64,000 bases of DNA, from the UHGV virus genome UHGV-1352914. The stretch is one strand, 5' to 3'. The translations under genes and the position numbers were made by a program. This document shows positions 6,209-64,000 of this stretch, in pieces; position 1 is the first letter of the stretch; the number at the start of each line of letters is the position of its first letter. This DNA is from a virus. The notes below the pieces were generated by a model, which searched no databases, was not told where the DNA came from, and saw nothing but the letters and a program-made list of their open reading frames with translations.

Positions 6209-6251
6209 TAAGCGAGTTACAACTTCCTCAAAAATTTCTTCCAAAAACTTC

Positions 6252-6279
6252 TTGACAAAAATCTAATGCCTGCTATATT
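6252..6279 (+). promoter_or_regulatory. sigma70-like promoter TTGACA-N16-TATATT
   Basis: Seen in sequence (aacttcTTGACAaaaatctaatgcctgcTATATT). Confidence 0.5.
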
Positions 6280-12248: not shown

Positions 12249-12253
12249 ACCTC

Positions 12254-12281
12254 TTGACATTTCACGAACTTGTGATATGTT
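12254..12281 (+). promoter_or_regulatory. sigma70-like promoter TTGACA-N16-TATGTT
   Basis: Seen in sequence. Confidence 0.45.
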
Positions 12282-13213: not shown

Positions 13214-13218
13214 CCGAC

Positions 13219-13247
13219 TTGACTAGTAGGGGTTTATCCAGTATAGT
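13219..13247 (+). promoter_or_regulatory. sigma70-like promoter TTGACT-N17-TATAGT, -10 ends ~6 nt before the ATG (leaderless)
   Basis: Seen in sequence; ATG of next gene at 13253. Confidence 0.5.
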
Positions 13248-13252
13248 CTGTC

Positions 13253-16268: not shown

Positions 16269-16296
16269 TTGACAACGTCGTCCATTTGCGTATATT
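16269..16296 (+). promoter_or_regulatory. sigma70-like promoter TTGACA-N16-TATATT, leaderless geometry (ATG at 16303)
   Basis: Seen in sequence. Confidence 0.5.
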
Positions 16297-16302
16297 GAGG
16301 GC

Positions 16303-28472: not shown

Positions 28473-28483
28473 AAAATAATTTC

Positions 28484-28511
28484 TTGACAAGTAATAAAAT
28501 TCTGATAAGGT
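28484..28511 (+). promoter_or_regulatory. sigma70-like promoter TTGACA-N16-(TG)n-TAAGGT
   Basis: Seen in sequence. Confidence 0.4.
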
Positions 28512-28517
28512 GGTGGC

Positions 28518-47800: not shown

Positions 47801-50800
47801 CTCCAGTCCAAACTCTTGAACAGAAGATGGCCAGATGGAGAAGCAAGCCGTGGGCTGAAATGAATACCAAGGAGAAGACGTTTGCCGTTGCTTCCTATTT
47901 GTACAGCACGAGCATGGCCGCAGTGGAAGGAGCCACCGAAGAACTGGCAGACGAATTCCAAGAGTGGGCATTTACTGAACTGGTGAAGAACGGAGAAATC
48001 TCCGAATCCTCTATTGCCACTACTGACCAAGTGATTAGCGGTGCTATAAAGACTGCTTTCCTTGGGGGTATCGGCGGCTACGTTGGTAGCCAGTTAGCTG
48101 GTGAAGGGAACATACGTTTCCAAACCGAAGCCGCTCCCACCCTTGATGTAAAGGATGCTACTTCCATACTACCGGATATTACGAAAGATGCGAGCAACAT
48201 CATCGAGGAAACGGGCAAAGCCATTACCAAGGATAATGTACCGGAAAGCTTGGTAGAAACCGGAAAGAGGGTTATCGAGATTGCCGGGGAGAAGGGGGAT
48301 GCCGCGGAAGTTGCCCGCGAATGGGTGGACAAATCCATTGCCCATGAAAGTCTGGCAGTCTCCGATGAAACCCGCAAGGCATGGGTGGAAGGCGCAACCC
48401 GTATGGGCATCAGCAATTTCACCCAGTTCCGCAACCTAGTTGAACGGGCCTCCGAAATATATACCTACGAGGGTAGTGCCGCGGCAAGCTCATTCATGGC
48501 AGAAGCCATTAACGACCTGCCCAATACCCTGTCATTCCCAAATAAGGAAAACCTCGACACCATGCGCACCATGCTTTCGGAGGCCCTTGATGCTATGGGA
48601 GACAGGGTTCAGGTTATCGAAGTAGACGACGACCTGTCCATCATTACTACAGGGGACGAGGACCTCGATGCCGCTCTTCACGTCATTAACGGATTGACGG
48701 AACCCACGGCTACCACGGAACCCAAGGAATCCCCGACTACCGCGGAACCCACGGCTACCGCGGAACCCACGGCTACCGCGGAACTCACGGCGCGGAAGGA
48801 GAGGGACCAAGCCATTGCCCCCGTCACTAACATGGTAGATACGGGAGTAGTTACCCCCGAAGCCGTGGAAACCGTGGATACCTTGGATGCCGCCATTACT
48901 TCGTTCGACCCCAACACTGGGGCATGGCTTTCATCCGGTTCACCTCTTGACCGCGGAACCAAGCTCGTCTCCTTGAACGAGATGACCGGGATTAACGCCC
49001 CGCTGGTTACGAGCAACACGGGAGAAACCATTGTCGTCTCTCCGCACGCAAGCATGTACAACATGGGTGAGGGAGGGACACCCAGCACCAAGTGGGGGGA
49101 TAGGGTCTCCGCTCTCAATCTCCCCTCTGACGGGACGGGCGTAAATGCCTACGGCATCCTTTCGGACCTTCGCGTCAAGGCATCTCCTGCACAGGCCGCG
49201 GCCATTGACGGAGTGCTCCGCGCATTGCATGCCGCTGGTTTGGACGTGGCTATCCGAGCCACCAATGCTCCTGCCAATATAGCCTCCCCCGCCAGTATCA
49301 CGTATAAGAACGGAACAGACGGGAAGCTCGTCGGCGGCGTCATTGACCTGTACATGGACCGGGACAATGTGATTGAGAGCGTAACGGGAACAGTACTGCA
49401 TGAGGCCATCCACCTCATTGACCGTCATCTTCGTGCCACTAACGCGGACTACTCCCAGCGGATGGACAAGATTAGAAGCGCAGTTGCGGAGAACTATAAT
49501 CAAATCATTGATAGCCTCACTGCTATGTATGAAGCTAGCGTGGACATCAATGAGATGAATGCCATCGCCGCGCTTGCCTCCGACCTCAACTATGGTCTCC
49601 GTGGCCCGGACGAATTTGCCAGTGTTGCGTTCTCCAATCCTGTCATGAACTTCATGATTGCGGAGGTGAGCGGAGACAATGTAACCCTCACGGATTTGGC
49701 TCGCTATGCCGAAGCGGCTGGGGGCAGGAGACCCGTTCATGTGCGCCTCATTGAATGGCTTAAGGATTTGATTAGGGATGTGCGGCAAACTGCGGACGAC
49801 ATGGATGGAACCACCGCCGCCAAGAATGCGGCTGAATGGGATTCCTATGTGGACCGCGTCGCGGACATAACCCCCGGCAAGTGGTTCGACATGCCTCGCA
49901 CTCCGTCATGGAAAGTAGACGATACGGACTACACCATGAGCCGTGAGGTAGATTATTTTAACCCGTTGGCCTATGAGACCGACATGACCCAAAGACTGTC
50001 CTTCGGTCTGGGCGCAGAGATTATCGGTACGAATGCCGGGAACTGGGTAACCAGTGTTAAGAACGTATGGCAAGGCGTGTCTAAGGGCTGGGACAAAGCT
50101 GGCATCAATGTTAAGTCCGAGGAACAGAAGCTGATTGTGCTGGAACAAATGACCAACGTGAATGCGGCGTATGAACGCAGTATTAAACGCATTGGCAAAA
50201 TCGGCGATATGCTTCAACGCCGTGCGGATAGTCTGGGCTGGGATGCCACGACGCGAAAGAAATGGAGCAAATCCATTCTCGATATGTCGGGGAATATGGA
50301 CAACGATATTGACCCTGAAACTGTTGCACGCATTAACGCAGAGGCCCAAGCAGAAGTTCGCCAGCACGAACAGACCCGCGACTTCCGTATCGCGTTGGCT
50401 AAGAAGACCGTTACCGATGCCGTCAATAGGCACGCGGAAGCGGTGCGTCTGGCCAACTCCCTTGCGCTTAATAGTGAAGGGCGATTGGAAATCAATGAGA
50501 TGATGCGCCGGATTAAAGACATGAGCGTCAAGGGATATGGTGCTATGCTGGACAAGACGGTGGCTCTCCCCATGCTCTCCCAGCAGATTCACAATGTGCT
50601 CTCTGACCTTGGCTCTCGTATCTCCGCGACGGGGGATGCCAATCTGGAAACCACCTACTTTGGCCTCGCCCGTGATACGCAGAACTACCTTGCGGATATG
50701 ATTAACGAGGTGGACAGTCCCTTCTCTATGGATGAACTTCTGGACAGGTGGTCCAACCTTCGCAACGACTACCTCTATGCGGAGAGTACAAACCACCCCG

Positions 50801-53800
50801 CCATCGCTCCTATGATTCAGGACATCTCTAGGGCACGGGCCGAAGCTAAACAAATCATCCGGGAAGCCAACGATGATTTCCATGCCGCAACAAAGAGGGC
50901 AGGTGTAACTCGTGCTGGCGTAACTACCCCTGCTGGTTCCGTGTGGCTGAAACGGGACAACGCTATCCTCGATGCACGCCGTCAGAAACAGGCAGAGTAT
51001 ATGGCTAAGCGGGATGCCGCGGAACAATGGCTTCTGTCACAGGGAGTTGTAGGCCAGCTGGTCCACAATGTCATCGCCGATTCCCGTAAAGAAATTGCCG
51101 CAACGCAAATCTCTATTGCCAAGCTCATTGGAGATAGCCGTATGGCTAACAACGCCGCGGAGATGAATTATCTTCATCGCACCTACATGGCCGTAGGTCG
51201 TCATGCCGGAGACTTCACCCGGACGATGAAGGACATCATTGCACACCCCAACGGAGAACTGGCGCAGAAATACGATGGCCTGACGAAGTTGTTGCAGGAA
51301 GCCGCAATCGCTCATGCCGAAGCGCACCAGACAGAGTTGTCCGAAAACATAAGCCAAGTGCTGGACAACATGCAGGCATTGGCCGCGCTCCATGACGAGT
51401 TGAAACTTCCGCTGGTGTCAGCTCCCACGGGAGCCTCTTCGAATTATAAACTCCTGTTCGAAGGTGTAGCCAAGAACTACAGGACCAGAGAAATTCTTGA
51501 CTTCATTCAGAACAACTTCGGCAGGGTTCAAATGCTTGCGGACCTGCGGGATGGCCACAACATCAGTGCCATGTATAATAAGGCCATGAGCATGATAGCA
51601 CAGGCTGACTATCGCACGAAGTCAAAGATGGCAGAGATGAAAGAAACTCTGGACATGAAAGCCAGAGATAGTTTCCTCGCCGATGTCTTCTCCAGCCTTC
51701 CGGGAAACACGATTGCCGACAAAATCGGCGGCCTTGAATCCCCGGCATCCGTGGCTTCCGAAGTGAACAAGGCCATCCCCACTATCCCGACTTCGGCCAT
51801 TGACCAGATATGGAACGCTCCGAATATGAATGCCGCAGAACGACTGGACAAGACGCTCAATCTTCTCCGTGGTCAGGCGGGCATTCTCATGGGGGCGAAC
51901 AATATGGGCAACGTCATCTCCGCTACCGACTTGAAAGTGTTGCAATATCCGGAACTCTCCCGTCTTGCGGTGAACGATGCCATGAAGGCCATTGACGAAG
52001 TGCTGACCAAGAAGAGGACGAATGAAGATGCGCTGGCCCAGCGGAAACGCTTGCCCGAATGGCAGAGGAAAGCTATGTATGAACTTAGTGACCTCACCAT
52101 TGGGGATGCCATTGGGACATTGCAGAATACCATATCCATGCAGTCGAAGATTGCCGTGAACCAGTTGCTTGCTGACGAGTACGCCACCGTGCTCAAGGCA
52201 CAGGGTGTAGTCGTACCCCCGGATTCCGCGAGCCGTACCCCTGATATGGTGGAAATCTCCTTGAAGAATACGAAGAATGCGTTGAACGGATTGTATGCCG
52301 ACAAGGATGTAGCCGATGCACTCTATCACATCTACAGGCCAAGCGACGACATCATGAACAGTCGGACGGACGACTATAAGAAGGTGCGCAAGTACTGGCA
52401 GAAGTCCGGCAAGGGTCAAGAATGGTGGAGTAAGGCGGGTGGCTTGGCTAACCTTTCTGTCTTAATAGCTAGTCCTAATTCCACGTTACGTAACTTATAT
52501 GGTACAGTAGCTCAAATGACCCATGCGGGTGCACTTCCATTCACGGGGAGTAAAGACATCGCAAACCTTGTCGGGGACTGGGTCCAGTTGCGTAAGTTGT
52601 GGTGGCTATCACAGGGCAAGGACCTTGGTTCACAGGCTTCCGCAGATAGACTGCTGGCCGCGGAAGACAGGTACAACGAGAAGATTCGCTACTGGCAAGA
52701 GCTTGGTCTGCTGGACGCAGGTCAAGGGGAGTTCCTGCGCAACGTCTGGAAGTCTGACGAGTTCAGTAAGATGGCAGGAGAATTTGAAGAAGTGAATGAA
52801 GATTCCTTCTTCAAACTCGCCGAAGCTCTGAACGAGAAACAGGAACGGACGAAGGGCGAGGTGGCTAAGGATGCCGCCAAGATGGCGGGCAAAGTCGTAG
52901 CATGGCCCGTCAAAACGATGGCCTTCGCCTATGGCTTGCCGGACGCGGCGGCCAAGATTGTTCTCTTCACTAACCAGAGAGCGATTGCCGATACCCAATT
53001 AAAGGTACAACTGGCACGGGCGAAAGGCAAGGCCAACCCCAATGCGCGGGACCAGATACTCCTTGACGCGAGCCAGACTGACCAGAGTTGGAATGCGTAT
53101 GTGGATAGGTATACTGCCCACATGGTGAAGAGCTTGCTCCCCACGGGTTCGCGTACTCCTTCGTGGGTGAAAACCCTGAATATAGTTGCGGCTCCGTTCT
53201 TCATGTTCCAGTACCATACCGCCCAGTCCGTAGTCTACAACCTTGGCCACGCCATAGGCGAAGGGGTAGACGGTGTGTGGGCTATCAATAACGGCATGAA
53301 GAAGGAGGGGGCTTACCTCTTGGGACGCGCTTTCGTTCGCATCGCTGGTTCCGTAGGAACTATTTCTGCAACCTCTGCGGTCTCTTCCTGGGTTGCCCGA
53401 CAGATTATCACCAGTGTCTTGGGAGATGACGATGACCGTAAAATCATTGACGACGCGGAAGTCATGAGGAAGCTGGCAGACAGTGGGCTAATTCCCGACT
53501 ATGATAAGTTCGGGGACTTGATTGGCATCATAGATATGAAGCGGCATGAGTTCGAGTATTTGAACCTTGAATACATGAACCCGTTCAAGACCATCAAGGT
53601 GTTAGCCAAAACCCTGCCCAGCCTCTTCATGGATATGGATGTGGACAAGTGGGGGATGAACAAGGTCGCCGAACTGAAAAACCTGCTGGAAAATACGGTG
53701 CTCGAAGAATCCCTCCTTCTGAACGCCGCTTCTGAATTGTTTAATGAGGAAGACTTCAATTACAAGCATAGCCTCTCAGGTGATGAAAGTGTCAACGTTC

Positions 53801-54534
53801 TCCCGGCAGTAGGCAACGCAATCCTGTTGGCCGCAGGACTGAACCCCTCGTTCGGCAGTGGACATACATGGCAAGTCCTTGAACGATTCGCGACGGTTGC
53901 CAATAAAAAGATTCCCTTCTACGGCTGGGCAGTCAAGTCAGGTAAACAAGCGTTTAGCGATACACCTGACATGAGTGGCGCGGCATACGGGTTACAGTCC
54001 TTGGGTGCGGGCCTCCGTCGTCCGAAGGATTTGACCGAAGCCCTTGCCGCCGGGTTAAAGAATGCCAACGCGGCGGTCACTAAGTCGAAGCGAATGAGCA
54101 TTCTGCGTCCGGACTTCTACAAGAGAATGGAATCCGGGATGGATGTGGAACTCATGGAAGCCGTGGAAACCGCGGATGCCGTGAAGAATTTCACCAAGCT
54201 AGTCAATAGTGTCCGGTTCGTTACGGAAATTACAAACATGCTTGACCCGTCCATCCGTTCGGAAGTTCTGGCCTCCGTGATTGAGAGTTCCGGTATGAGT
54301 GCCAAGACCTACGGCGCGGCCATGCAGGGCATCATGCCCTACGTCATTAGCCCGCAAGCAGGACGTGAAGCTATCGCGAAGCTCAACCGTGAATTGCAGA
54401 AGTCTAATACCACGGACGAGGGCAAACGCCTAATCGAAGAGCAGAAGCAACTCATTATCAACCTCATGCGGAAGGGTAGCATTCCGATTGATGGGGCATT
54501 GAGTACAGAGGAAATTCATAATCGGATGAAGTAG
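44869..54534 (+). CDS. Giant virion/ejection ('polyvalent'-type) protein, 3221 aa, with zincin-like HExxH motif
   Basis: Single uninterrupted ORF; mostly helical/low-complexity; 'GTVLHEAIHLIDRH' HExxH; linker repeats 'EPTATAEPTATAE'; no DxDGD RNAP motif seen. Confidence 0.75.
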   Translation: MAIDFSTANMSDFAPTSASSIAREQRAAERHATWQETQKQKQEDRAQKALDREQRLAEKKQTRAEKAAGATAEFDDYVFKSIDDFQKKQTEQADRARNVEWETKSRAHTEQGWKTTAEKADIDVLNKGNRGFTFEGIDYMKDYVDRGEDALVDLKAAARGDSDAIKKLTNNTGIVAVSSSELSPQHPAFLSRFGFGMGEDGNPVVTEKFLAIAADRNRNAKAVAKSIANTMEKARKDYLNSHLDVGTGKPKAEAIETAPIAYTAEEIESIINTIRREDIDNYRAAKSLYTKHRAASTENVQKKTPSQTNVGELGVGEFSDSAPSFTGNVFAELANLSKSPSKMFRLVRDYGDYLSRNGDIYIPGHQTSKKEKPVEDRIREQIEAADKIVRRLEEDYTGLPYLELRDAILNPEAAASTLLSLVPNADMDAIRARAEVLAKDLRRKKDRPLTFETDEQIGMSEAILEAVATRFPGVPKSTLYQAGVTNLIQGYVAKATPRGTLMDAVNGAMANYRSTAGQIADVLTFQPGDSVGKTSDPLSTMEWRKGTRRGTWEYGVPGGPSFDVGPERLKEYMAQYHIESTRDALNSLSHAARMGDLGVGRGSLFAYNPHTKEVDTNATLELNPNALYDNKLMDKSIEALRASGADEGLINRTIEKFQNLRTKSAQELVKDNIALDETLGTLRDTWLGSGMRFNPVWTETMKHLDKYLSFKNFYNEQKEAGKSDEDILSAWQEKGQAHINPILRGFQIGTHKAIDLGTGAAYGALLFAQNAVGSRAAMEHTRTLWDQLNKKQEAEAELVRGNIIADYTAEIANLGYQMVATAGAGKIGGLAGRALERTALTKFARAMANVAARRAEALVPAARPGLAGRLSGTIQRNLNNLAALSLERAGAGAGVNLTIISQVAPNAYSDIFYTIYDREMEGKEATAENTNRAQSIASRHALFGAALVSTGSTLINNRAGMDSFMRKVVGAKNLRGQSPVQTLEQKMARWRSKPWAEMNTKEKTFAVASYLYSTSMAAVEGATEELADEFQEWAFTELVKNGEISESSIATTDQVISGAIKTAFLGGIGGYVGSQLAGEGNIRFQTEAAPTLDVKDATSILPDITKDASNIIEETGKAITKDNVPESLVETGKRVIEIAGEKGDAAEVAREWVDKSIAHESLAVSDETRKAWVEGATRMGISNFTQFRNLVERASEIYTYEGSAAASSFMAEAINDLPNTLSFPNKENLDTMRTMLSEALDAMGDRVQVIEVDDDLSIITTGDEDLDAALHVINGLTEPTATTEPKESPTTAEPTATAEPTATAELTARKERDQAIAPVTNMVDTGVVTPEAVETVDTLDAAITSFDPNTGAWLSSGSPLDRGTKLVSLNEMTGINAPLVTSNTGETIVVSPHASMYNMGEGGTPSTKWGDRVSALNLPSDGTGVNAYGILSDLRVKASPAQAAAIDGVLRALHAAGLDVAIRATNAPANIASPASITYKNGTDGKLVGGVIDLYMDRDNVIESVTGTVLHEAIHLIDRHLRATNADYSQRMDKIRSAVAENYNQIIDSLTAMYEASVDINEMNAIAALASDLNYGLRGPDEFASVAFSNPVMNFMIAEVSGDNVTLTDLARYAEAAGGRRPVHVRLIEWLKDLIRDVRQTADDMDGTTAAKNAAEWDSYVDRVADITPGKWFDMPRTPSWKVDDTDYTMSREVDYFNPLAYETDMTQRLSFGLGAEIIGTNAGNWVTSVKNVWQGVSKGWDKAGINVKSEEQKLIVLEQMTNVNAAYERSIKRIGKIGDMLQRRADSLGWDATTRKKWSKSILDMSGNMDNDIDPETVARINAEAQAEVRQHEQTRDFRIALAKKTVTDAVNRHAEAVRLANSLALNSEGRLEINEMMRRIKDMSVKGYGAMLDKTVALPMLSQQIHNVLSDLGSRISATGDANLETTYFGLARDTQNYLADMINEVDSPFSMDELLDRWSNLRNDYLYAESTNHPAIAPMIQDISRARAEAKQIIREANDDFHAATKRAGVTRAGVTTPAGSVWLKRDNAILDARRQKQAEYMAKRDAAEQWLLSQGVVGQLVHNVIADSRKEIAATQISIAKLIGDSRMANNAAEMNYLHRTYMAVGRHAGDFTRTMKDIIAHPNGELAQKYDGLTKLLQEAAIAHAEAHQTELSENISQVLDNMQALAALHDELKLPLVSAPTGASSNYKLLFEGVAKNYRTREILDFIQNNFGRVQMLADLRDGHNISAMYNKAMSMIAQADYRTKSKMAEMKETLDMKARDSFLADVFSSLPGNTIADKIGGLESPASVASEVNKAIPTIPTSAIDQIWNAPNMNAAERLDKTLNLLRGQAGILMGANNMGNVISATDLKVLQYPELSRLAVNDAMKAIDEVLTKKRTNEDALAQRKRLPEWQRKAMYELSDLTIGDAIGTLQNTISMQSKIAVNQLLADEYATVLKAQGVVVPPDSASRTPDMVEISLKNTKNALNGLYADKDVADALYHIYRPSDDIMNSRTDDYKKVRKYWQKSGKGQEWWSKAGGLANLSVLIASPNSTLRNLYGTVAQMTHAGALPFTGSKDIANLVGDWVQLRKLWWLSQGKDLGSQASADRLLAAEDRYNEKIRYWQELGLLDAGQGEFLRNVWKSDEFSKMAGEFEEVNEDSFFKLAEALNEKQERTKGEVAKDAAKMAGKVVAWPVKTMAFAYGLPDAAAKIVLFTNQRAIADTQLKVQLARAKGKANPNARDQILLDASQTDQSWNAYVDRYTAHMVKSLLPTGSRTPSWVKTLNIVAAPFFMFQYHTAQSVVYNLGHAIGEGVDGVWAINNGMKKEGAYLLGRAFVRIAGSVGTISATSAVSSWVARQIITSVLGDDDDRKIIDDAEVMRKLADSGLIPDYDKFGDLIGIIDMKRHEFEYLNLEYMNPFKTIKVLAKTLPSLFMDMDVDKWGMNKVAELKNLLENTVLEESLLLNAASELFNEEDFNYKHSLSGDESVNVLPAVGNAILLAAGLNPSFGSGHTWQVLERFATVANKKIPFYGWAVKSGKQAFSDTPDMSGAAYGLQSLGAGLRRPKDLTEALAAGLKNANAAVTKSKRMSILRPDFYKRMESGMDVELMEAVETADAVKNFTKLVNSVRFVTEITNMLDPSIRSEVLASVIESSGMSAKTYGAAMQGIMPYVISPQAGREAIAKLNRELQKSNTTDEGKRLIEEQKQLIINLMRKGSIPIDGALSTEEIHNRMK

Positions 54535-55626: not shown

Positions 55627-55682
55627 GAACCCGCAACGACATCATTCTGTTTGGACTGTAAGTTGTTTGGGTTCTAAGCGAA

Positions 55683-55715
55683 AACCCCGGAAGAGAATTC
55701 CTTCCGGGGTTTTTG
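55683..55715. terminator. Bidirectional intrinsic terminator at strand-switch point
   Basis: aaaaccccggaag-agaatt-cttccggggttttt; U/A tracts on both sides; convergent gene blocks meet here. Confidence 0.7.
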
Positions 55716-55717
55716 TA

Positions 55718-56224
55718 TTACTTCTGTTTCGCTTCAAGAGATTCTATTAGCAGGGTAATCTCGCCGATACATCGTTGCAATTCCGATGCCGGGTTTACCT
55801 CCACCAGCTTATCATGTGCCCAGATATAGAAGAGCCGTACCAGAATGGAATCTTCGGGGCTACGTTGGTAGCTATGGCTCATGACTGTACGCCTGAACTG
55901 TTCAAGGATAAGGTAAAGGTCAAACGTTTCGAACACCTTGGACCAGTGTTTGGCGTGGTATTCGAGATACCACCTCGCCTTCTTGAGGTCTTCAATACGG
56001 TTCTTCTTGTACTGTGACCGCATCAAATACTTGACGGCGTTCCCTAACGCGAAGGGAAGCTTGCCAGTAATTTCTATGGTCTCGATTCCGCTGGGGTGGG
56101 AGGTGTAATGCTTCGGGTGGTTGACGGCATCGTTCATGGATTCCTTTCCTTCCGGCAGGTCGGGGAAAGCCTGTGAGTTTACCTTGGTTGAAACGATTGC
56201 GTTGATTGCTTCGTGAGCGTGCAT
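55718..56224 (-). CDS. DUF3310-like phage protein (nucleotide-metabolism associated)
   Basis: 'HPKHYTSHPSGIETIEI...LGNAVKYLMRSQYKKNRIEDLKKARWYL' resembles DUF3310 signature. Confidence 0.45.
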   Translation of the reverse strand: MHAHEAINAIVSTKVNSQAFPDLPEGKESMNDAVNHPKHYTSHPSGIETIEITGKLPFALGNAVKYLMRSQYKKNRIEDLKKARWYLEYHAKHWSKVFETFDLYLILEQFRRTVMSHSYQRSPEDSILVRLFYIWAHDKLVEVNPASELQRCIGEITLLIESLEAKQK

Positions 56225-56225
56225 G

Positions 56226-56831
56226 TTATTTGGTGAGGTGCTTGTAAATTTGTTTGTTGATATATTTGCGAATAGACATCTTGGCTATGACGAAGAGGTG
56301 GGGAGAGGGTAGAGTTAAACATCCTTCTTTGACTGTCCACTTCCTTGTAATTCTCCGTGCGAACTTGTACGCCTTCCTGCATATTTCCAGAGCCGCAGAG
56401 GAACTTCCAACAAGAGCCACAGGAACTCTACTGTTGATGAAATAGCCATGAAATTTGAACTGGAAGAAAAAGGAGTTGTCCCCCTTAATCCAGCTAGGGG
56501 TTTCATTTGGGGTAGTTTCTCCAACTGAACGTGTGGATATTTTACTGGACGCAAGGATGCGACCATAGGTTAGTTGTTCCTCGGTCAGTTGTTTATTCGA
56601 CCGGAGAGAGGCATGGATAAGTTGCTTATGTTCAGGCATGAAGCGAGACCGAAACTTGTTAGCTCTTACCTCCATCAAGAACTTCCTTTGCTTCGCGGGG
56701 CTATCTCGATACCAGTAAAATTTGTCTCCGTATTTCTTGCACTTGAACTTTCCTCTTCGACGCTTCCCATGAGGGTGTTTCATGTTGGCCGCCATCTGTT
56801 CCCGATACTTCTTGAGACTTATTTTTCCCAT
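56226..56831 (-). CDS. Basic Lys/Arg-rich protein (possible DNA-binding / endonuclease-like)
   Basis: 201 aa, pI clearly high; inserted between nucleotide-metabolism genes. Confidence 0.4.
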   Translation of the reverse strand: MGKISLKKYREQMAANMKHPHGKRRRGKFKCKKYGDKFYWYRDSPAKQRKFLMEVRANKFRSRFMPEHKQLIHASLRSNKQLTEEQLTYGRILASSKISTRSVGETTPNETPSWIKGDNSFFFQFKFHGYFINSRVPVALVGSSSAALEICRKAYKFARRITRKWTVKEGCLTLPSPHLFVIAKMSIRKYINKQIYKHLTK

Positions 56832-57490
56832 AGTTCTGGAACGAAATGGATTCGGTTAGTATCAACTGGGATGTCCTTGAATGCCCATGCGAGGCCATAC
56901 TTCAATTCCATCCTCTGGCGCAGGGCCAGAAGGAGCGCACGGATTTGCGGCTGGGCCGCGCCGTCCAATCGCATACGGAAGATGTGCCTCCACTCGCGGA
57001 GGTTAGCAGTCACTCCAATGCATGTGGCCGTGCAGTTCGGAAGCAACCCCCGCGCCTCTTCGGGAGGCAGTCCTCCTTGGATAAGTTCCACGTACTTCTC
57101 CGCAAGGTTCTGGCAGGTATCCTTATACTCTTCAATGGTCTTCGGGTCAACCTTCTCGTCGCTAAAGAACTGCGGACGGATGAAGCAAATGGTTCCCTTC
57201 CGGGAGTAGTTGACGTACCGCTGGCTCTCCATGCTGACGCTCATGTGTCTGTGTCGGACAAGCTGATGCGTCACCGCTCTATCCGTCGAGAAGACTGCTG
57301 GGATGTTGATGTGCTCGATGACACTCTCATGCCCGCGATTAATGATACGGGAGAGAAACGCAATGGGGTCACCCTTCGGTTCGCTTTTATAGCAGATACG
57401 ACCCATTATCTCTGCGGCCTCCACCTGCTTATCTATTTCCGATTTAGTTAGCGGAAGAATGACTTCTTGATTTGTCCAAAGAACGTTCAT
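56819..57490 (-). CDS. thyX: Flavin-dependent thymidylate synthase ThyX
   Basis: 'HESVIEHI', 'RHRHMSVSMESQRY' (RHRx7S), 'ARGLLPN'. Confidence 0.9.
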   Translation of the reverse strand: MNVLWTNQEVILPLTKSEIDKQVEAAEIMGRICYKSEPKGDPIAFLSRIINRGHESVIEHINIPAVFSTDRAVTHQLVRHRHMSVSMESQRYVNYSRKGTICFIRPQFFSDEKVDPKTIEEYKDTCQNLAEKYVELIQGGLPPEEARGLLPNCTATCIGVTANLREWRHIFRMRLDGAAQPQIRALLLALRQRMELKYGLAWAFKDIPVDTNRIHFVPELWEK

Positions 57491-57764
57491 GAATTAAATG
57501 TTTGGCTTCGTAGTTTGCAAGTTCAAGAGTGGGGAAGGTCCATCCATACTGGCCCCACTCACTGGTGCTGGGGAGGTATTCGTCTCCGGCTTTTACTTTG
57601 ATAAAATCATTGTCCGCTTTGTGCTGACGGATGATGACGACCTCATAATTGTTTACCTTCCCGCTTCCTTTGTGGGTTAGTTCGTATATGGCTACTCCCG
57701 CTTCACGGAAAATGAGCCTACATAAGAAGGGGTTGCGAGTAAATTCAGTCGGAATCTTTTTCAT
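57444..57764 (-). CDS. Hypothetical protein
   Basis: 106 aa. Confidence 0.4.
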   Translation of the reverse strand: MKKIPTEFTRNPFLCRLIFREAGVAIYELTHKGSGKVNNYEVVIIRQHKADNDFIKVKAGDEYLPSTSEWGQYGWTFPTLELANYEAKHLIHERSLDKSRSHSSAN

Positions 57765-59742
57765 TTGTGATTGATGGATTAAGCATTTGCATGAATTCTT
57801 CTTCTGTGATTGAAGGAATCTTGTGGAGCTTCGCTATCTTTTGCTTATGTTCTCCGGGTTCCTTACCGACAACTAGATAGTTGGTCTTCCTTGACACGTT
57901 CTCCTTGACCGTGCCTCCCATGTCCTGAACGAGCAGGTTATATACATGGCGAGGCTGGGACAGGATTCCCGTGATGACGAAGTTCACACCCTTTAAGGCC
58001 GTGCTCTTTGGTACATTGCCTTCGACATTAGGGATGTCTCCCGTCATAACCATTGTCGTCATCTCATTCCACGTAGGCACGGTCTCCATGTAGTTCAGAA
58101 TTGCCTCGGTCATCAGGGGGCCGAACTCCGCATGACGCTTGCTCCTTAAATCTTCGGGGAAGAGAGTAAGGAACGTGTAGAGATTGGGGTACATGCGGGA
58201 GAGATTTTCCGCACGGGTACTACCGACATGAGGAATCTCCATTGCAGTAATCCATTGAGCAAGAGACGCATGGTGCTTCCGTTCCTCCACGATTTCAAGG
58301 AATCCCCGGTATCCTTGGGTTCCGGGGATTCCGTTAATGAGATTGTCCATCATGCCGGACATGAGAAGCAGGAACGGGTGATGGAGGTAAGCAGTCTGCG
58401 CCGTCGGCGGTTCCACATCAGCCTCTCCCTTGATTAGTTTGTCCGCAATCATGCGAGAGAATACGAGGCCCATGCCGTCAATATCCAGTGCGTTCTTTCC
58501 GCATGCGTATTCCAGCTTGGCCGCTACCTTATCCCTGCACAACGGATTGATGCAGAAGGTGTCGAGGCCACAAGAGTATAGAGTGGAGCCGCAACATGGA
58601 CAGGTCAGAGGGACAACGGAATCCGTATTGCCACAGCCGCGAACCTTGCGGACATAGGGGATAATCTCTCCTGCCTTAACCACCTCCACGGTATCCCCGA
58701 TATGGAAGGACGCCGCATTGGATGCGTTGGAGAGGGAGGCACGGGATACATTGGTTCCACCAATCTTCACCGTATCAAATACCGCAACCGGGGTAAGAAC
58801 TCCGGTTCTGCCTACTTGCCAAATGACATCCCGGAGGGTAGTCTCTACGCCCTGCGGGTTGAACTTAAAGGCTACCGCGTCCTTCGGGTGATGGGCAGTA
58901 GCCTCCCCTGCCGCGGCAATGGCGTTCTTCTGGTTCAACTTAAACACAATACCATCAGTAGGATAGGCGATGTCGTCACGCAGGTACTTGGCCATGTCCC
59001 GGATGCATTCATCCGTCAGGGCTTCGCCTTCTGGCCATTCATTGGGAAGGGTTACGAGGTCAAACATTTCCATCAGCCATCCATGCAGTTCCATGCGGGA
59101 TTCAATCCCATCCGGCATGGGGCTTGCATCAAACGGGATGAAGGTAATGAGCCAGTCAGACCACTTGAGATTATTATTTCGGAGTTGACCAACGGCACAG
59201 GCGCGGAGGTTGGAGTACCCCATGCTTTCCACCCGCCCCTCTTCACTCTTAGCTACAACCACTTCCCCACGGATAGCTCCCGTATAGTTCCCATAACTTG
59301 GTGGGACCATATAGAGAACCTTATCAAGGGGAATGACCTCCCCCTCGGTTCCGTTGCCACGAGTAACGGCACGAACGAGCCGCCCATTTTCGATGTACAG
59401 AACGAGGGTAAGGCCATCATACTTCGGTTCAACCACGACATCCCTCCCCGCAACCCAGCCTCGAAGCTGGTCCATGCCAATCCCATCCTTGCCCTCATGA
59501 ATCTTGGCGAGAGACAGGACGGGATTGGGATGCCGGAAGGTCTTGGCTCCGCATTGTACGTCGTCCCCTAGGCTATCGAGTTCCTTGGATTCCGGGGAAC
59601 GGGAACGCAGTTCTTCAACCAGCGTATCGTAAACCGTGTCGGGGAGAAGGGTTTTCCCTTCGTGGTAGTAGGAGCTATTGAAGATAGCAATCACTTCTTC
59701 CAACTCCATCACGCTCGTGTTTTTAGGATTGCCTATTTCCAT
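57745..59742 (-). CDS. ligA: NAD-dependent DNA ligase
   Basis: 'EPKYDGLTLVL...RGNGTEGE' adenylation site, Zn finger 'CPCCGSTLYSCG...CINPLC', C-terminal BRCT-like 'YLVVGKEPG'. Confidence 0.9.
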   Translation of the reverse strand: MEIGNPKNTSVMELEEVIAIFNSSYYHEGKTLLPDTVYDTLVEELRSRSPESKELDSLGDDVQCGAKTFRHPNPVLSLAKIHEGKDGIGMDQLRGWVAGRDVVVEPKYDGLTLVLYIENGRLVRAVTRGNGTEGEVIPLDKVLYMVPPSYGNYTGAIRGEVVVAKSEEGRVESMGYSNLRACAVGQLRNNNLKWSDWLITFIPFDASPMPDGIESRMELHGWLMEMFDLVTLPNEWPEGEALTDECIRDMAKYLRDDIAYPTDGIVFKLNQKNAIAAAGEATAHHPKDAVAFKFNPQGVETTLRDVIWQVGRTGVLTPVAVFDTVKIGGTNVSRASLSNASNAASFHIGDTVEVVKAGEIIPYVRKVRGCGNTDSVVPLTCPCCGSTLYSCGLDTFCINPLCRDKVAAKLEYACGKNALDIDGMGLVFSRMIADKLIKGEADVEPPTAQTAYLHHPFLLLMSGMMDNLINGIPGTQGYRGFLEIVEERKHHASLAQWITAMEIPHVGSTRAENLSRMYPNLYTFLTLFPEDLRSKRHAEFGPLMTEAILNYMETVPTWNEMTTMVMTGDIPNVEGNVPKSTALKGVNFVITGILSQPRHVYNLLVQDMGGTVKENVSRKTNYLVVGKEPGEHKQKIAKLHKIPSITEEEFMQMLNPSITNEKDSD

Positions 59743-59980
59743 TGTCGTCTTCCTTTCTTACTGGAAGAATACCTTCGCTAATCAAATTGTCAAGTTCTTT
59801 CTCTACTATCTTGTGACATTCCGAAGGGGGCCTCAGTACAAATTCCAATATGGTAACATACTCCATCCTTAAGGGAACCGTGTTATGCTCCTGTGCTTTC
59901 TTCACTAGGTTCTTACTGATTGTCCGAATAATTTTCTGTACAAGTTTACGATATGTTTCCAGTTCGCTAGTCGTTTCCAT
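59723..59980 (-). CDS. Hypothetical protein
   Basis: 85 aa. Confidence 0.4.
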   Translation of the reverse strand: METTSELETYRKLVQKIIRTISKNLVKKAQEHNTVPLRMEYVTILEFVLRPPSECHKIVEKELDNLISEGILPVRKEDDNGNRQS

Positions 59981-59994
59981 AATTCAAATGTGGT

Positions 59995-60594
59995 TTATGC
60001 TTCGTGGGGCAGGATAATTTTACGGGTGTTGGCTTCCTTTTCTGCGAGTTCGGATTTGTCCACGAAGGTGAGGGTGGAATGTTCCATTAGGCTCATGGAT
60101 ATTACGTTACTTGCCACGGAGAAGAGACGGAATGCGGAGATGCCTCCCTTCTCTTCATCGAGGCGGTCCGGGTCATTCTTACTGGCATACGCTACCAAGA
60201 TGTGAATGGCCATGAAGAGGACGAGGGCCTTAATCATGACATGGGAATCGGTAAAGATATTGCATGCCTTGCCGGGGTTCTCAAGCTCCTGCATAAAGGC
60301 AATGTATTCCTTTACAGTGACGAGGTTCTTGGCGACTTCTCCCATGATGAACTGAACACCAGCCAGCGGCGGGGGTTCAATATCAAAGATGTTGGAGGCG
60401 TAGTCTCCTAGTTCAATAGCCTTCTCGGCAACCGCGTCCGCGGACGCATCAATGGGCAGGTTGAAGGCAGGGACTGCATCCCACTCCCGTTGCAGTCTTT
60501 CCTTCAACATGACAGACTTCGGTTCGGCGAGAATGCGGGCTACCTCTTCCTGAATAGAATCGAGGCTCAATTTGTTTGGTTCTGTAGTGTCCAT
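59995..60594 (-). CDS. Hypothetical protein
   Basis: 199 aa. Confidence 0.45.
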   Translation of the reverse strand: MDTTEPNKLSLDSIQEEVARILAEPKSVMLKERLQREWDAVPAFNLPIDASADAVAEKAIELGDYASNIFDIEPPPLAGVQFIMGEVAKNLVTVKEYIAFMQELENPGKACNIFTDSHVMIKALVLFMAIHILVAYASKNDPDRLDEEKGGISAFRLFSVASNVISMSLMEHSTLTFVDKSELAEKEANTRKIILPHEA

Positions 60595-60616
60595 GTGCGT
60601 ATAATAGTATTTGGGT

Positions 60617-60841
60617 TTAATTATTTGTCCACGAAGATTGTTGCGAAAATTGTGACAGCAGAGAAAGGAGTTCGTCCTTTGCGTCCTCTTCGCTATATTG
60701 GGGAGAGGTGGCGAGGTGACAGCTTATGCATTCCCAATAAGGGGCGGGTCTCCATTCCCGTTCATAGTCGTCATAGTAATAGACGTCATTGCTTAGCCTC
60801 ATGAGGCTTCCGCACAGAGGGCATTCATATTCTGGGTCCAT
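60617..60841 (-). CDS. Small zinc-ribbon protein
   Basis: 'CPLCGS...CISCH'. Confidence 0.45.
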   Translation of the reverse strand: MDPEYECPLCGSLMRLSNDVYYYDDYEREWRPAPYWECISCHLATSPQYSEEDAKDELLSLLSQFSQQSSWTNN

Positions 60842-60858
60842 ACTTCTTTCTGGATTTA

Positions 60859-61395
60859 TTACTTGTCAAGCTCTGTTTCTTCGTCTCTGTCTATCTCGTT
60901 CAGGAGATTGCAGAGGCGTCCCATTTTGATTGTTCCCTCCCATGAAGGAACGATGTGTAGGGGCTGGTTCTCCTTGAAGTCCCAAAGAACTCCGTCGATA
61001 ACTTTGAACCGATGATGCAGGTCTATCGGCCTAATGAGAAGGAGGGAGGAAGTGTTGACTACTTTCGATGCTCCTGTTCTTTCATCCTTAACGCTGATAA
61101 GACTGGAATCTGTCTCGTCTTCCGTTACAATCCATGTACCTTTTCGGTCTTTACAAATCACCACGTCCCCCGTCTTAAACTCCCGAAGAGGTGCGGGGTA
61201 ACATTTGATTGCCTCTTCATGACGGACAACTCCCTCACCCGGAGGGAAAGAATTTATGACCTTGTATCTGTAGTGGTGCGGGGAAAGTTCGATTACCTGC
61301 CCCACGTAATACTGTTTGTCCAGTTCTCTGACAATGTAGTCACCGGGGTCGATAGCCTCGTCGATAAATTTTTGCAAGTCTTTGGGTTCTAACAT
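60859..61395 (-). CDS. Hypothetical protein
   Basis: 178 aa. Confidence 0.45.
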   Translation of the reverse strand: MLEPKDLQKFIDEAIDPGDYIVRELDKQYYVGQVIELSPHHYRYKVINSFPPGEGVVRHEEAIKCYPAPLREFKTGDVVICKDRKGTWIVTEDETDSSLISVKDERTGASKVVNTSSLLLIRPIDLHHRFKVIDGVLWDFKENQPLHIVPSWEGTIKMGRLCNLLNEIDRDEETELDK

Positions 61396-61438
61396 ATTCT
61401 TGATAGAAGTGGTTATAACTTTTAGGATTTCGTTTGGG

Positions 61439-62011
61439 TTAAACTCTCAAATTGCATTGGAAGGAACCTTTGTGGAGCGAGAGGATTTCCTCATTGGACA
61501 GGGTCCCCATGTTCAGCCGCATGGCGTCGGGAGCCATCGTCAAAATGGGAGTGCCTTCAATGGACCGGGGGAAGGACATCTTGGTGGCGAGAGCTAGCGA
61601 GGGGCGGGCCTTAAACATAGCGTCGTAAAGTGTTTCGCTATACCTGACGGCAGAATGTCCTCCGAGATAAATTTCGGTAGCATACATGCAATCCTTGCCG
61701 CGCTTCTCTTTAGGGTAGTCGAGCCGGAGGATGCGCACCGAGTGTTCCACGTATGCCTTCAGGTCATAAAGTGTGCGGATGATGAAGTGGGTGTCGGTCA
61801 TAGTTACCTTCCCGATTCCAAAGGCTTCAATCAGGGACTTGGTCCGGGCAGACTGGAGACTATTATCCTCCGGATTCCGTGGAATATAGAGTTCAGCGGG
61901 TGTCTTGGAGGGAAGGATAATAGTATCCCAAAGTTCCCCGGTGCTTCCTCCGTTATTTCTGGTCCAAGAATGAAGGAGCATGAGTTGTTGAGCGAGTGCG
62001 AGGGGTTTCAT
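61439..62011 (-). CDS. Hypothetical protein
   Basis: 190 aa; preceded by conserved upstream element. Confidence 0.45.
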   Translation of the reverse strand: MKPLALAQQLMLLHSWTRNNGGSTGELWDTIILPSKTPAELYIPRNPEDNSLQSARTKSLIEAFGIGKVTMTDTHFIIRTLYDLKAYVEHSVRILRLDYPKEKRGKDCMYATEIYLGGHSAVRYSETLYDAMFKARPSLALATKMSFPRSIEGTPILTMAPDAMRLNMGTLSNEEILSLHKGSFQCNLRV

Positions 62012-62045
62012 AATCGTTTGGTTTTTGTAGGGCTAGGTGTGGATT

Positions 62046-62396
62046 CTAGATGTTAAGTTTCCAGCGGAGAGTTTGATACCCGGCTTCCGTGGGTTCCGTG
62101 GGTGGCTCAAGGTATAAGAAGATTCCTTTACGATTGACGACAACGGTTGCGCTATCCGGACTAAAGGCAAGTAGATAGACATGAAGGTATCGGAGGACAT
62201 CCTCATGGGGGAGCCTATAGGTACGAAGCGGATAGTTCTGTTCAATCATCCTTCTAAGCTTAGTAAGCTTCTTTAGTGCCGACTTCCTAAGGACCGCAGT
62301 CACCGCAAGGCCTCCAGCACTTCCAGCAAGTTTTGACAGAGCAAAGTCCGAATCATTATCGGTATCAATTTGTGAGGTGAATAGAGTAATTTCCAT
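62046..62396 (-). CDS. Small protein, paralog A (C-terminus ...LRWKLNI)
   Basis: Shares 'RTYRLP...GIFLYLE...L(H/R)WKLNI*' with 62425-62763. Confidence 0.5.
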   Translation of the reverse strand: MEITLFTSQIDTDNDSDFALSKLAGSAGGLAVTAVLRKSALKKLTKLRRMIEQNYPLRTYRLPHEDVLRYLHVYLLAFSPDSATVVVNRKGIFLYLEPPTEPTEAGYQTLRWKLNI

Positions 62397-62424
62397 AATA
62401 ATTTTGTAGGGCTATGTGAGGTTT

Positions 62425-62763
62425 CTAGATGTTAAGTTTCCAATGGAGAGTTGGGTACCCGTCCTCACTGGATTCAAGGTAAAGGAAGATGCCATCACGA
62501 GAGATTACAAAGGTCACGTTATCTGGGTCATACCTGCACAGATAAATGTATATATCCTTGACAACCGTAAAATAGGGCAACCTATAGGTTCGTACTGGGA
62601 AGATGTTTTCTATTGTTTGTTGAAGACAGAGTAGCATCCGCTTTTTCCGACTGGATATTTTGAAGCTGATTGCAAGGGGGTCCTGCTCTTTTGGCTTATC
62701 AGGGTACGGCTTCCCTCCAGTATTGGTTTCTGCTTGGCTAAGTATTAGGTCAAAATTCTCCAT
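62425..62763 (-). CDS. Small protein, paralog B (C-terminus ...LHWKLNI)
   Basis: See paralog A. Confidence 0.5.
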   Translation of the reverse strand: MENFDLILSQAETNTGGKPYPDKPKEQDPLAISFKISSRKKRMLLCLQQTIENIFPVRTYRLPYFTVVKDIYIYLCRYDPDNVTFVISRDGIFLYLESSEDGYPTLHWKLNI

Positions 62764-62795
62764 AATAATTTTGTAGGGCTATGTGTGGATTCTAA

Positions 62796-63149
62796 TTAGA
62801 AGAGGGGGCGATTGAATCCCATGTCTTCAAGGCAACGGGCGAGGCGATTTGCTTCCAGCTGATGCCGCTTCAAGCGGCGGCGTATGATATCAATACCCCA
62901 CTCTACCAGCAACTGGAAGACAAACCAGCCCACGATAATGACACACCATGTAAGGTAAGATATGAGGAACTCTCCAGTGGTAAGGAGGTAGCCGAGACAT
63001 ACGAGTGCACTCACGAGGGCGACAATGTCCACTACCGAATGAAGATGTTCCACGAGGCTCCACAGGGTGTGAAGCCTATCGGCTCGTCCGATGTGGTGGA
63101 GACATTGCTTGCGGAAGATGACGACGTTGGATTCTTTTTCGGAGGTCAT
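62796..63149 (-). CDS. Small membrane protein
   Basis: Two hydrophobic helices; preferred over antisense 319-aa ORF. Confidence 0.45.
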   Translation of the reverse strand: MTSEKESNVVIFRKQCLHHIGRADRLHTLWSLVEHLHSVVDIVALVSALVCLGYLLTTGEFLISYLTWCVIIVGWFVFQLLVEWGIDIIRRRLKRHQLEANRLARCLEDMGFNRPLF

Positions 63150-63179
63150 ACTATAGAGCTATGTGAGAGTTCTAGGGGT

Positions 63180-63785
63180 TCAACGGAGTACGAGCTTCAC
63201 GGTTTCCAGATTCAAATCCTCCTGCCATTTGTTGCTAGTGAACTTCACCATGCAGGGAAGGAAGAAACGTTCTGCCAGCTTGCGAATCTTTATGGAATTG
63301 AGATTGTTCATGGCTTCCTTATTAGGTGTGAGGAATCGGAAGCGCATATAGGTGAGGCTACCGTCAACCATGAAGTCCACCGCCCCCGCTTCTTGTGCGA
63401 TACGAAGACCTACTTCCTGCCAGTTCTGATTAACCACCGCCGTAAAGTGCTTTGCCAGTTCTATGGCATCACCTACAGTCAGAGCCGCCATTTCCGCAAG
63501 GTGCCACACCGAACCGTTCCACTTCAACTTGTGGAGCCGGACAATGCACGCACCATTGTGTGTGCGTTCCAATTCGATTGCGTAGGGCCGCATGTACGGC
63601 TTAACATACACCGTTCCTTCTCCGTCCCACTCGGAGGGCTTATCTATCCTGTGGGATACTTCCCCCTCCCTAAAGGAAAAGATTGCAGGCTGAAGTTTGT
63701 TGATTCGGTTTGTGAGTTTGAGCCATTCCGTGCGGGAAAGTTCATCACGTTTCTTGCCAGTAATATCGATGTCAAATGCGGTCAT
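63180..63785 (-). CDS. Hypothetical protein
   Basis: 201 aa; conserved upstream element at 63786-63825. Confidence 0.45.
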   Translation of the reverse strand: MTAFDIDITGKKRDELSRTEWLKLTNRINKLQPAIFSFREGEVSHRIDKPSEWDGEGTVYVKPYMRPYAIELERTHNGACIVRLHKLKWNGSVWHLAEMAALTVGDAIELAKHFTAVVNQNWQEVGLRIAQEAGAVDFMVDGSLTYMRFRFLTPNKEAMNNLNSIKIRKLAERFFLPCMVKFTSNKWQEDLNLETVKLVLR

Positions 63786-64000
63786 AATTTTGTAGTGTTC
63801 TTTGAGTGTTCTAATGGGTAGGGTAGCTGGGGCCGGGGGTTAGGCCCTGTAGCTGGGGAGGGTGGAAACGGTTGTGTGGTTATAGTCGAAGCGAGGGTAT
63901 TGTACACCAGTCAGGGCTTTAAGGTCTTGCTTCAATGTCTTCACTTGCTCTTCCACTTTAATGGCATGTGCAAAATAGCAACGCATATAATAGGAATCGC

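Follow-up and report, generated by a model that had tools for sequence, protein, structure and literature searches.

In a 64,000-nt stretch of the virus genome UHGV-1352914 (hereafter the window), five consecutive genes of the leftward, minus-strand early block are each preceded by a copy of a 27-nt sequence, yTAGAAyCnnCAcATAGCyCTAyAAAA, which is a real, oriented, strongly constrained and gene-proximal cis-element. There is, in our judgment, about an even chance that this element represents a lineage-specific class of promoter, in which transcription would start inside the 3′ end of the element; in the best reading, it also serves as a recombination breakpoint for early-gene cassettes. Its kind is known, from phage-specific promoters and promoter-bearing intergenic repeats, while its sequence and its reader are new. 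The source phage is uncultivated and human-associated, and the window covers most of its ~69-kb genome.

The first-pass annotation of the window had described a distinct element in front of these five genes, and pattern and matrix scans together recover the five copies, four of them strong and one diverged, all on the minus strand and each in the gap directly 5′ of a gene. The pattern TAGAAYNNNCACNTAGCYCTA, with up to 3 mismatches allowed, gives 4 matches in the 64-kb window against 0.25 expected, and the four strong copies fit it with at most 1 mismatch. When a matrix was derived from these four copies only, the diverged copy at 63814 scored 18.9 bits and ranked fifth among 127,948 positions; the next best site reached 12.6 bits and the shuffle maximum was 17.0. 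A search of the rest of the genome, proposed in the annotation and run here as the same matrix scan of the 64-kb window, yielded no further copy at that level on either strand.

The consensus proposed in the annotation was roughly right as regards the core, which spans 27 nt, but its AAAATTATT tail is not general: the tail is complete only before the paralogous 112-aa and 116-aa genes, is partial in copy 1, and is not conserved at the orthologous junction of related genomes, which reads CTACAAAAACAAAAC... The spacing to the start codon is not fixed at 0 either, contrary to what had been stated, the distance from the end of the 27-mer to the ATG being 2, −1, 5, 5 and 11 nt for copies 1–5. The negative value corresponds to the 117-aa gene, whose start codon is fixed by the conservation of the N-terminus in orthologues. 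In copies 4 and 5, the TAG of the element doubles as the stop codon of the preceding gene (the 112-aa and 116-aa genes, respectively). Copies 3 and 4 are 93% identical over 41 nt, whereas the proteins encoded downstream of them are just 38% identical. The flanks of copies 1 and 2 are unrelated on both sides, and so are the upstream flank of copy 3 and the downstream flank of copy 5. Therefore, the element is not a simple duplication remnant, in agreement with the annotation.

Applied to 25 close relatives (~90% identity), the same matrix detects 7–10 copies per genome at ≥16 bits, all of them on the gene strand, with 0 opposite-strand matches in the 25 relatives plus the window, and matches of 25 bits or more occupy, without exception, the gap that immediately precedes a gene, on the strand of that gene. 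The copies form two subclasses: (i) class A, yTAGAAyCnnCAcATAGCyCTAyAAAA; and (ii) class B, cTGAAAAGTTACACCGCCCTAyAAAA or TGAATAACTACGCCGCCCTAyAAAA, which is located in the ~4.6 kb past the window end. That this additional part of the early block lies outside the window follows from the alignment of window bases 64000 and 3 to positions 9397 and 4786, respectively, of the relative L010; the window thus ends within the early block, and 4–6 more copies, of class B, follow base 64000. Among 67 distinct 27-mers, information is concentrated at G4 A5 A6, A12(C13), (G17)C18, C20 T21 A22 and A24–26, while the flanks of these 27-mers have no information content. At the copy-2 site, compared in 26 genomes, the core varies just at positions 1, 7, 8 and 25, and these positions, variable between orthologues, are also the variable ones among paralogous copies. 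When IMG/VR was scanned with the degenerate core GAANNNNNACNNNGCYCTAYAAAA, multi-copy contigs came from this phage group only, occurrences elsewhere being single and at about chance level, which suggests a phage-specific rather than a general host signal; the 25-mer of copies 3 and 4, searched for exactly in the same database, gave no match. The set of junctions that carry the element differs between genomes: L013 has one before the 178-aa gene, where the window has none, and relatives that lack both paralogue cassettes display a single element at the copy-5 junction (L010 10991).

Deeper lineages were retrieved with a profile of the giant 3221-aa protein of the phage, to which their own versions are 52–54%, 36% and 29–30% identical, together with an ENA contig at 49%. 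In the 54% lineage, the element reads CTAGAAnCyTCATAkAACsCTA and occurs 4 times per genome, always sense and with 0 antisense matches, at the same junctions as in the window, that is, before the orthologues of the 201-aa, 117-aa and 190-aa genes. The copy before the 202-aa gene of this lineage (CTAGAACCCTCATAGAACGCTATAAAG) matches window copy 1 at 21 of 27 positions without a gap, the 202-aa and 201-aa proteins being 50% identical. The 36% lineage carries the version TTAGAAyCTCAAyrTAAAnC, and degenerate versions such as GTAGAGCCTTACATTACGCT-ATG are kept in L026. Across these lineages, the flanking proteins are only 34–50% identical. The annotation had named, together with a single upstream start site serving the block, the disappearance of the element's conservation in related genomes as grounds for giving up the idea; since the element persists at orthologous junctions, its conservation does not disappear.

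Supposing that each copy is the promoter of the gene next to it, transcription has to start at or before core position 22–27, because some start codons reach into the core. Besides copy 2, this is the case for a 113-aa gene of the 54% lineage, whose ATG occupies core positions 22–24 (CTAGAACCCTCATAGAACGCT-ATG) in 5 of the 5 genomes carrying that gene and opens an N-terminus conserved among orthologues. We infer a start at or near the A of the invariant CTA (core position 22–25), so that the recognition unit would be a contiguous block of ~24 bp, comprising the invariant G4 A5 A6, A12(C13), (G17)C18 and C20 T21 A22 followed by the A-run, and would extend from about −18 to +5. Such a shape is similar to that of promoters for single-subunit (T7-type) polymerases, or for a host polymerase redirected by a phage factor, and unlike that of −35/−10 promoters. 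The predicted leaders would then measure ~0–17 nt for the class A copies of the window and 30–45 nt for class B, and, in the upstream half of the leftward early block, almost all genes would have a promoter copy of their own. A start inside the core would plausibly give leaderless or short-leader mRNAs. The proposal that this class is 'again leaderless' is consistent with the ATG found at core position 22 in the 54% lineage; the fixed spacing stated in the annotation is not retained.

The context of the element in the relatives bears on the same question. The upstream early genes of the 54% lineage have canonical TTGACA-N16/17-TAAAAT promoters, whose upstream regions are AT-rich; after them come a leader hairpin and, 8–12 nt before the ATG, AATAGAAAGAnAAT. 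In the lineage studied here, a class B element takes the place of the TTGACA-N16/17-TAAAAT promoter ahead of this kind of leader. Moreover, each relative genome has two sites where a class B element lies immediately 5′ of the −35 box of a sigma-70-like promoter. Transcripts initiated at the sigma-70-like promoters of these tandem sites would lack the element, which is therefore not needed in the RNA for translation there. Replacement of, or tandem arrangement with, known promoter types is the pattern expected of a second promoter class, and it speaks against a role that requires the element to be in the mRNA. The claim of a second class of gene-proximal signal is thus upheld as far as conservation in close and distant relatives, strict strand specificity and a non-sigma-70 geometry are concerned, and so is the distinction from the plus-strand motif, the plus-strand promoters being of the form TTCTTGACA-N16/17-TAnnnT. 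As a rule, promoters read by phage-encoded sigma factors or polymerases show good conservation (PMC4331800), and in P23-45 motif classes have been linked to phage polymerases.

Two observations on the signals neighboring these promoters should be mentioned. A conserved leader motif, (A)ATAGAAAGA(A/C)A(T/A)A, is present at L010 5805–5829, 6313–6335, 7484–7505 and 8786–8807, and also in L200 and L026/L201; it stands 8–12 nt before early-gene ATGs in three lineages and would base-pair with the 3′ tail of a 16S rRNA that ends in CUUUCU, while the rest of the genome is devoid of Shine-Dalgarno sequences and has start contexts like aaaccATG. On the plus strand, the genes have aTTCTTGACA-N16/17-TAnnnT promoters (e.g. 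at 6245–6265, 12252–12280, 13217–13252, 16269–16302 and 28482–28517), several of which are placed so that transcription would start at the ATG or adjoining it, which predicts leaderless mRNAs.

The element was compared with established classes of signals and does not fit those considered in this paragraph. Read as a sigma-70-type promoter, its best hexamer pair, T[T/A]GAAn and TAyAAA, is separated by 13–14 bp, as against the 16–18 bp required, and this reading also fails because, 7 nt past TAyAAA, transcription of the genes behind copies 1 and 2 would begin within their coding sequences. In copy 2, the ATG comes directly after TATAGT, and in the 54% lineage the ATG overlaps CTA, leaving no room for the spacing between a −10 box and a start. 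A scan with the sigma-70 consensus flags copy 3 only, through non-conserved bases (TCCACA-16-TATTAT). The promoter of the Bacteroidota primary sigma factor (−7 TAnnTTTG, −33 TTTG) is not found on the gene strand; TAATTTTG does appear in copies 1, 3 and 4, but exclusively antisense, where the AAAATTA tail creates it, and for copies 3 and 4 the relatives have not conserved this tail at the orthologous junction. An N4-type hairpin promoter (5–7-bp stem, 3-nt loop) was rejected, the single-stranded DNA folds of 0 to −0.5 kcal/mol being no better than those of shuffled sequences, and so was a structured RNA such as an RNase III site or a riboswitch (RNA-fold z-scores of −0.9 to +1.7), Rfam giving no match in the window. 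Antisense pairing with a phage RNA was discarded as well, just random 9-mers being found elsewhere in the window. Finally, an internal 11-nt tandem repeat is visible in copy 1 and in the 54% lineage; as a class-wide feature, it is not significant (z ~1 at offsets 11 and 13).

Several results weigh against a promoter function. No terminators were found between the early genes, and read-through from upstream promoters could therefore express the block with no need for internal ones. The 29% lineage, where the genes are tightly overlapping and have TTCTTGACA promoters, contains the giant protein and yet at most 1 element-like site. The search for a protein that could read the element gave negative results too. 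Pfam, used on most window open reading frames (ORFs) of at least ~95 aa, with about ten short ORFs of 53–144 aa left out, revealed no RNA polymerase, sigma factor or MotA/AsiA-like protein, and it detected no RNA polymerase or sigma factor among nine early ORFs of L010 past the window end. The 3221-aa protein has no match in Pfam, in PHROG or in the PDB, the latter searched both by phmmer and by profile. As for the 249-aa immediate-early protein, predicted to be a helical bundle in a good model (predicted local distance difference test score, pLDDT, of 79), it was rejected as a sigma or transcription factor since a Foldseek comparison with the PDB gave no match at E ≤ 0.001, the resemblances being just coiled-coil-like.

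The 3221-aa protein, encoded by the ORF at 44869–54534, was examined as a possible virion polymerase, with no sign of polymerase homology. About 4 homologue lineages exist in ~1.8 billion representative proteins, and the protein was not found in 185,579 species genomes. The DNDID sequence at residues 1811–1815 is not conserved, only N1812 and P1816 being invariant among 4 homologues, and an hhalign comparison of the 4-sequence profile with the N4 virion RNA polymerase (vRNAP) gave one 11-residue match, to the HExxH motif, with a probability of 1.5%. This HExxH motif is invariant (H1511, E1512, H1515, D1518 and H1520), and the protein might be a multi-domain component of the virion that is injected and includes a metallopeptidase module. 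An AlphaFold model of residues 2350–3050, the most conserved part, had a pLDDT of 47, too poor for a fold search. That the lineage encodes a new transcription enzyme or specificity factor, either the 3221-aa protein or an early protein, which would read a −18 to +5 promoter and make leaderless early mRNAs, seems to us distinctly improbable.

The element also bears on the way the early block varies. The interval between the 201-aa and 178-aa genes shows at least 9 gene arrangements among 20 scorable genomes; the 112-aa and 116-aa paralogues are present in this genome only, among these 20, and small early genes have been gained or lost between ~90%-identical genomes (window 62046–62763 compared with L010, L013, L015 and L022). 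Alignment breakpoints lie inside elements: L010 10992–11017 aligns to both window 62794–62769 and window 62048–62023. Similarly, the alignments of L010 9397–9608 and 9965–11017 overlap on window 63821–63793, so that two elements standing apart in L010 are fused into a chimera in window copy 1. Being near-identical direct repeats, the copies also serve as homologous-recombination breakpoints at which early-gene cassettes are added, deleted or swapped. Recombination is best seen as a consequence of the many direct repeats, not as the primary function of the element.

Could the element be nothing but such a repeat, devoid of function, spread or homogenized by duplication and gene conversion and marking the boundaries of mobile early-gene cassettes? 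Cassette gain and loss with breakpoints inside elements in near-identical genomes, the chimeric nature of copy 1 and the origin of copies 3 to 5 partly from tandem duplication are in keeping with this idea. It does not, however, account for the same invariant positions in 67 variants and two subclasses, for the retention of the element at orthologous junctions between lineages with 34–50% protein identity, or for its strict orientation and gap placement, and recombination is expected as a side effect at any repeated functional site; we consider it very improbable. A function at the level of RNA is also conceivable, the element being, within a polycistronic transcript made from a few sigma-70-like promoters, either a cleavage site that releases monocistronic short-leader mRNAs or an enhancer of translation in a host that initiates without Shine-Dalgarno pairing. 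The element always lies on the sense strand, immediately 5′ of start codons, it is unstructured, A/C-rich and low in G and U, and such a role would suit a genome with neither Shine-Dalgarno sequences nor terminators between early genes, whose relatives have sigma-70-like promoters upstream. What weakens this explanation, and makes it rather unlikely in our view, is that (i) the distance to the ATG ranges from −5 (ATG within the core) to >100 nt, unlike that of a translation-initiation element; (ii) a distinct ribosome-binding-like motif, ATAGAAAGAAAT, stands between element and ATG in the class B copies; (iii) the sigma-70-like transcripts of the tandem sites lack the element; (iv) more than 40 plus-strand genes do without it; and (v) it has no antisense partner in the window.

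A third explanation places the function in the DNA and assigns it to a protein other than a polymerase: a roadblock regulator, an upstream activator or a strand-specific nicking enzyme acting as in T5 and phiKMV-like phages. The strand specificity and the long, precise consensus would fit, as would the two tandem 11-nt units (AGAACnCTnA) discernible in copy 1 and in the version of the 54% lineage, which would suit a head-to-tail dimer, and the position of the element, twice in each relative genome, next to the −35 box of a sigma-70-like promoter. But the internal periodicity is not significant class-wide, the element is not palindromic, and most copies have no other promoter nearby to regulate; besides, the element is placed in essentially every gap that precedes an ATG, as would suit a role in gene expression better than one in nicking or replication. 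Altogether, this explanation appears unlikely.

The element copies and the early genes next to them are listed in Table 1. The minus-strand block (55718–64000) encodes an NAD-dependent ligase, a Thy1-family (ThyX) homologue and numerous small genes without assigned function. It converges with a plus-strand block (2445–55190), which encodes a VapE-type primase/helicase, a family A DNA polymerase, a helicase, an exonuclease, the large terminase subunit, structural proteins and the 3221-aa protein; between the two, at 55678–55716, lies a strong 16-bp hairpin with T-runs on both sides, probably a bidirectional terminator. Window bases 1–2444, between the two divergent gene blocks, are non-coding. 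This 2.4-kb region contains (i) five iteron-like direct repeats (TACCGnTTCCG...) at 410–607, with a spacing of 32–55 nt, which may be a replication origin; (ii) an 85-nt direct repeat, 94% identical, at 906–990 and 1386–1470; (iii) two paralogous promoter–terminator units without ORF on the plus strand (1556–1659 and 1689–1787), with the boxes TTGACT-16-TAGTAT and TTGACA-16-TATAGT, an extended −10 TG and a 14–17-bp terminator hairpin, predicted to give RNAs of ~70 nt; and (iv) a third ORF-free unit of this type on the minus strand (~1330–1144), with a predicted RNA of ~170 nt. Rfam has no match for any of these three units. The IMG/VR relatives are contigs of 60–72 kb from human-associated samples, a megablast search against deposited phages gave no match, the matches of the terminase are just 27% identical, and no tRNA genes were found in the phage DNA. 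The primase/helicase (VapE-like, 3317–6208) shows a weak match to a BT4734-like N-terminal domain; this match and the absence of Shine-Dalgarno sequences hint at a Bacteroidota host, which the TTGACA-type promoters do not fit.

Table 1. Element copies and early genes at the right end of the window (minus strand; copies numbered in the direction of transcription)
Feature	Position	Strand	Description	Evidence or remarks
249-aa early gene	63840–64000	−	3′ end only (cut by window end)	alignment to L010
Copy 1	63814→63788	−	diverged; TTAGAACACTCAAAGAACACTACAAAA, then tt, then ATG of 201-aa gene	18.9 bits
201-aa early gene	63180–63785	−	behind copy 1	48–50% identity in three lineages; no Pfam or PHROG match
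Copy 2	63175→63149	−	CTAGAACTCTCACATAGCTCTATAGT, then ATG; core base 27 is the A of the 117-aa gene's ATG	pattern, matrix
117-aa early gene	62796–63149	−	behind copy 2	probably membrane protein; weak MscS_TM match
Copy 3	62795→62769	−	TTAGAATCCACACATAGCCCTACAAAA, then ttatt, then ATG of 112-aa gene	38.3 bits, class A matrix
112-aa early gene	62425–62763	−	behind copy 3; variable cassette	missing in most close relatives
Copy 4	62428→62402	−	CTAGAAACCTCACATAGCCCTACAAAA, then ttatt, then ATG of 116-aa gene	pattern, matrix
116-aa early gene	62046–62396	−	behind copy 4; variable cassette	paralogue of 112-aa gene
Copy 5	62049→62023	−	CTAGAATCCACACCTAGCCCTACAAAA, then accaaacgatt, then ATG of 190-aa gene	pattern, matrix
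190-aa early gene	61439–62011	−	behind copy 5	L026 orthologue 34% identical

Should it be a promoter, the element marks out the early (or delayed-early) regulon of a common, uncharacterised group of ~69-kb human-associated phages, and its 27 bp constitute a precise bait for the protein that reads it. This protein could be new because no known polymerase or sigma factor is detectable in the genome. Small early phage genes often include anti-defence and host-takeover functions, and the element shows how their rapid turnover, visible between near-identical genomes, is driven by repeated regulatory sites. Even without promoter activity, it would still be a well-defined, strongly constrained cis-element in front of the majority of genes of the upstream half of this block.

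Several known systems resemble the one described here to various extents. The annotation had evoked a virion polymerase driving early genes, as in N4 and crAss-like phages, and there are indeed points in common, namely a ~70-kb genome, a ~3200-aa protein that ends the structural block and small early genes on the opposite strand. The analogy is nevertheless unsupported, as the element forms no hairpin and the giant protein has neither homology to the N4 vRNAP nor a conserved DxDxD motif, the DNDID sequence varying between homologues. The crAss-like phages are of no help here, because a study of their vRNAP found no common motif upstream of the early transcripts. The middle promoters of T4 combine a MotA box at −30 with a −10 element, and the T[T/A]GAA of the element, as a phage-specific upstream box, lies 13–14 bp from a TAnnnA/T box, which recalls the 11–13 bp of the MotA geometry. 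T4 also offers parallels for the tandem arrangement with host-type promoters and for the recombination, since stem-loop repeats at its early promoters are sites of gene shuffling for small early genes. Unlike in T4, taking TAyAAA as a −10 box would make transcription begin within the gene itself at copies 1 and 2, as at the 113-aa gene of the 54% lineage, and no MotA or AsiA homologue was found here.

The promoters of T7-type polymerases (T7, T3, SP6 and K11) share several features with the element: a contiguous block of ~23 bp (about −17 to +6) reaching the start, a geometry that the element fits if transcription starts at core position 22–25, as we infer; and many near-identical copies placed before successive genes on one strand, with lineage-specific variants. 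T7 and SP6 promoters have CTATA at −5 to −1, to which the CTAyA preceding the predicted start of the element bears a resemblance only. The differences are that no single-subunit polymerase gene was detected by Pfam in the ORFs scanned here and that the predicted start falls in an A-run, not at a G. The closing comparison is with the haloarchaeal virus HF2, whose intergenic repeats of 29 and 58 bp are AT-rich and are read by the machinery of an archaeal host, with TATA/BRE-type promoters (BRE, B recognition element), unlike the present element. The HF2 repeats are conserved in sequence and position among related viruses, as is the element in the present phage group, and they turned out to be promoters, their activity being established by reporter assay (PMC8707807).

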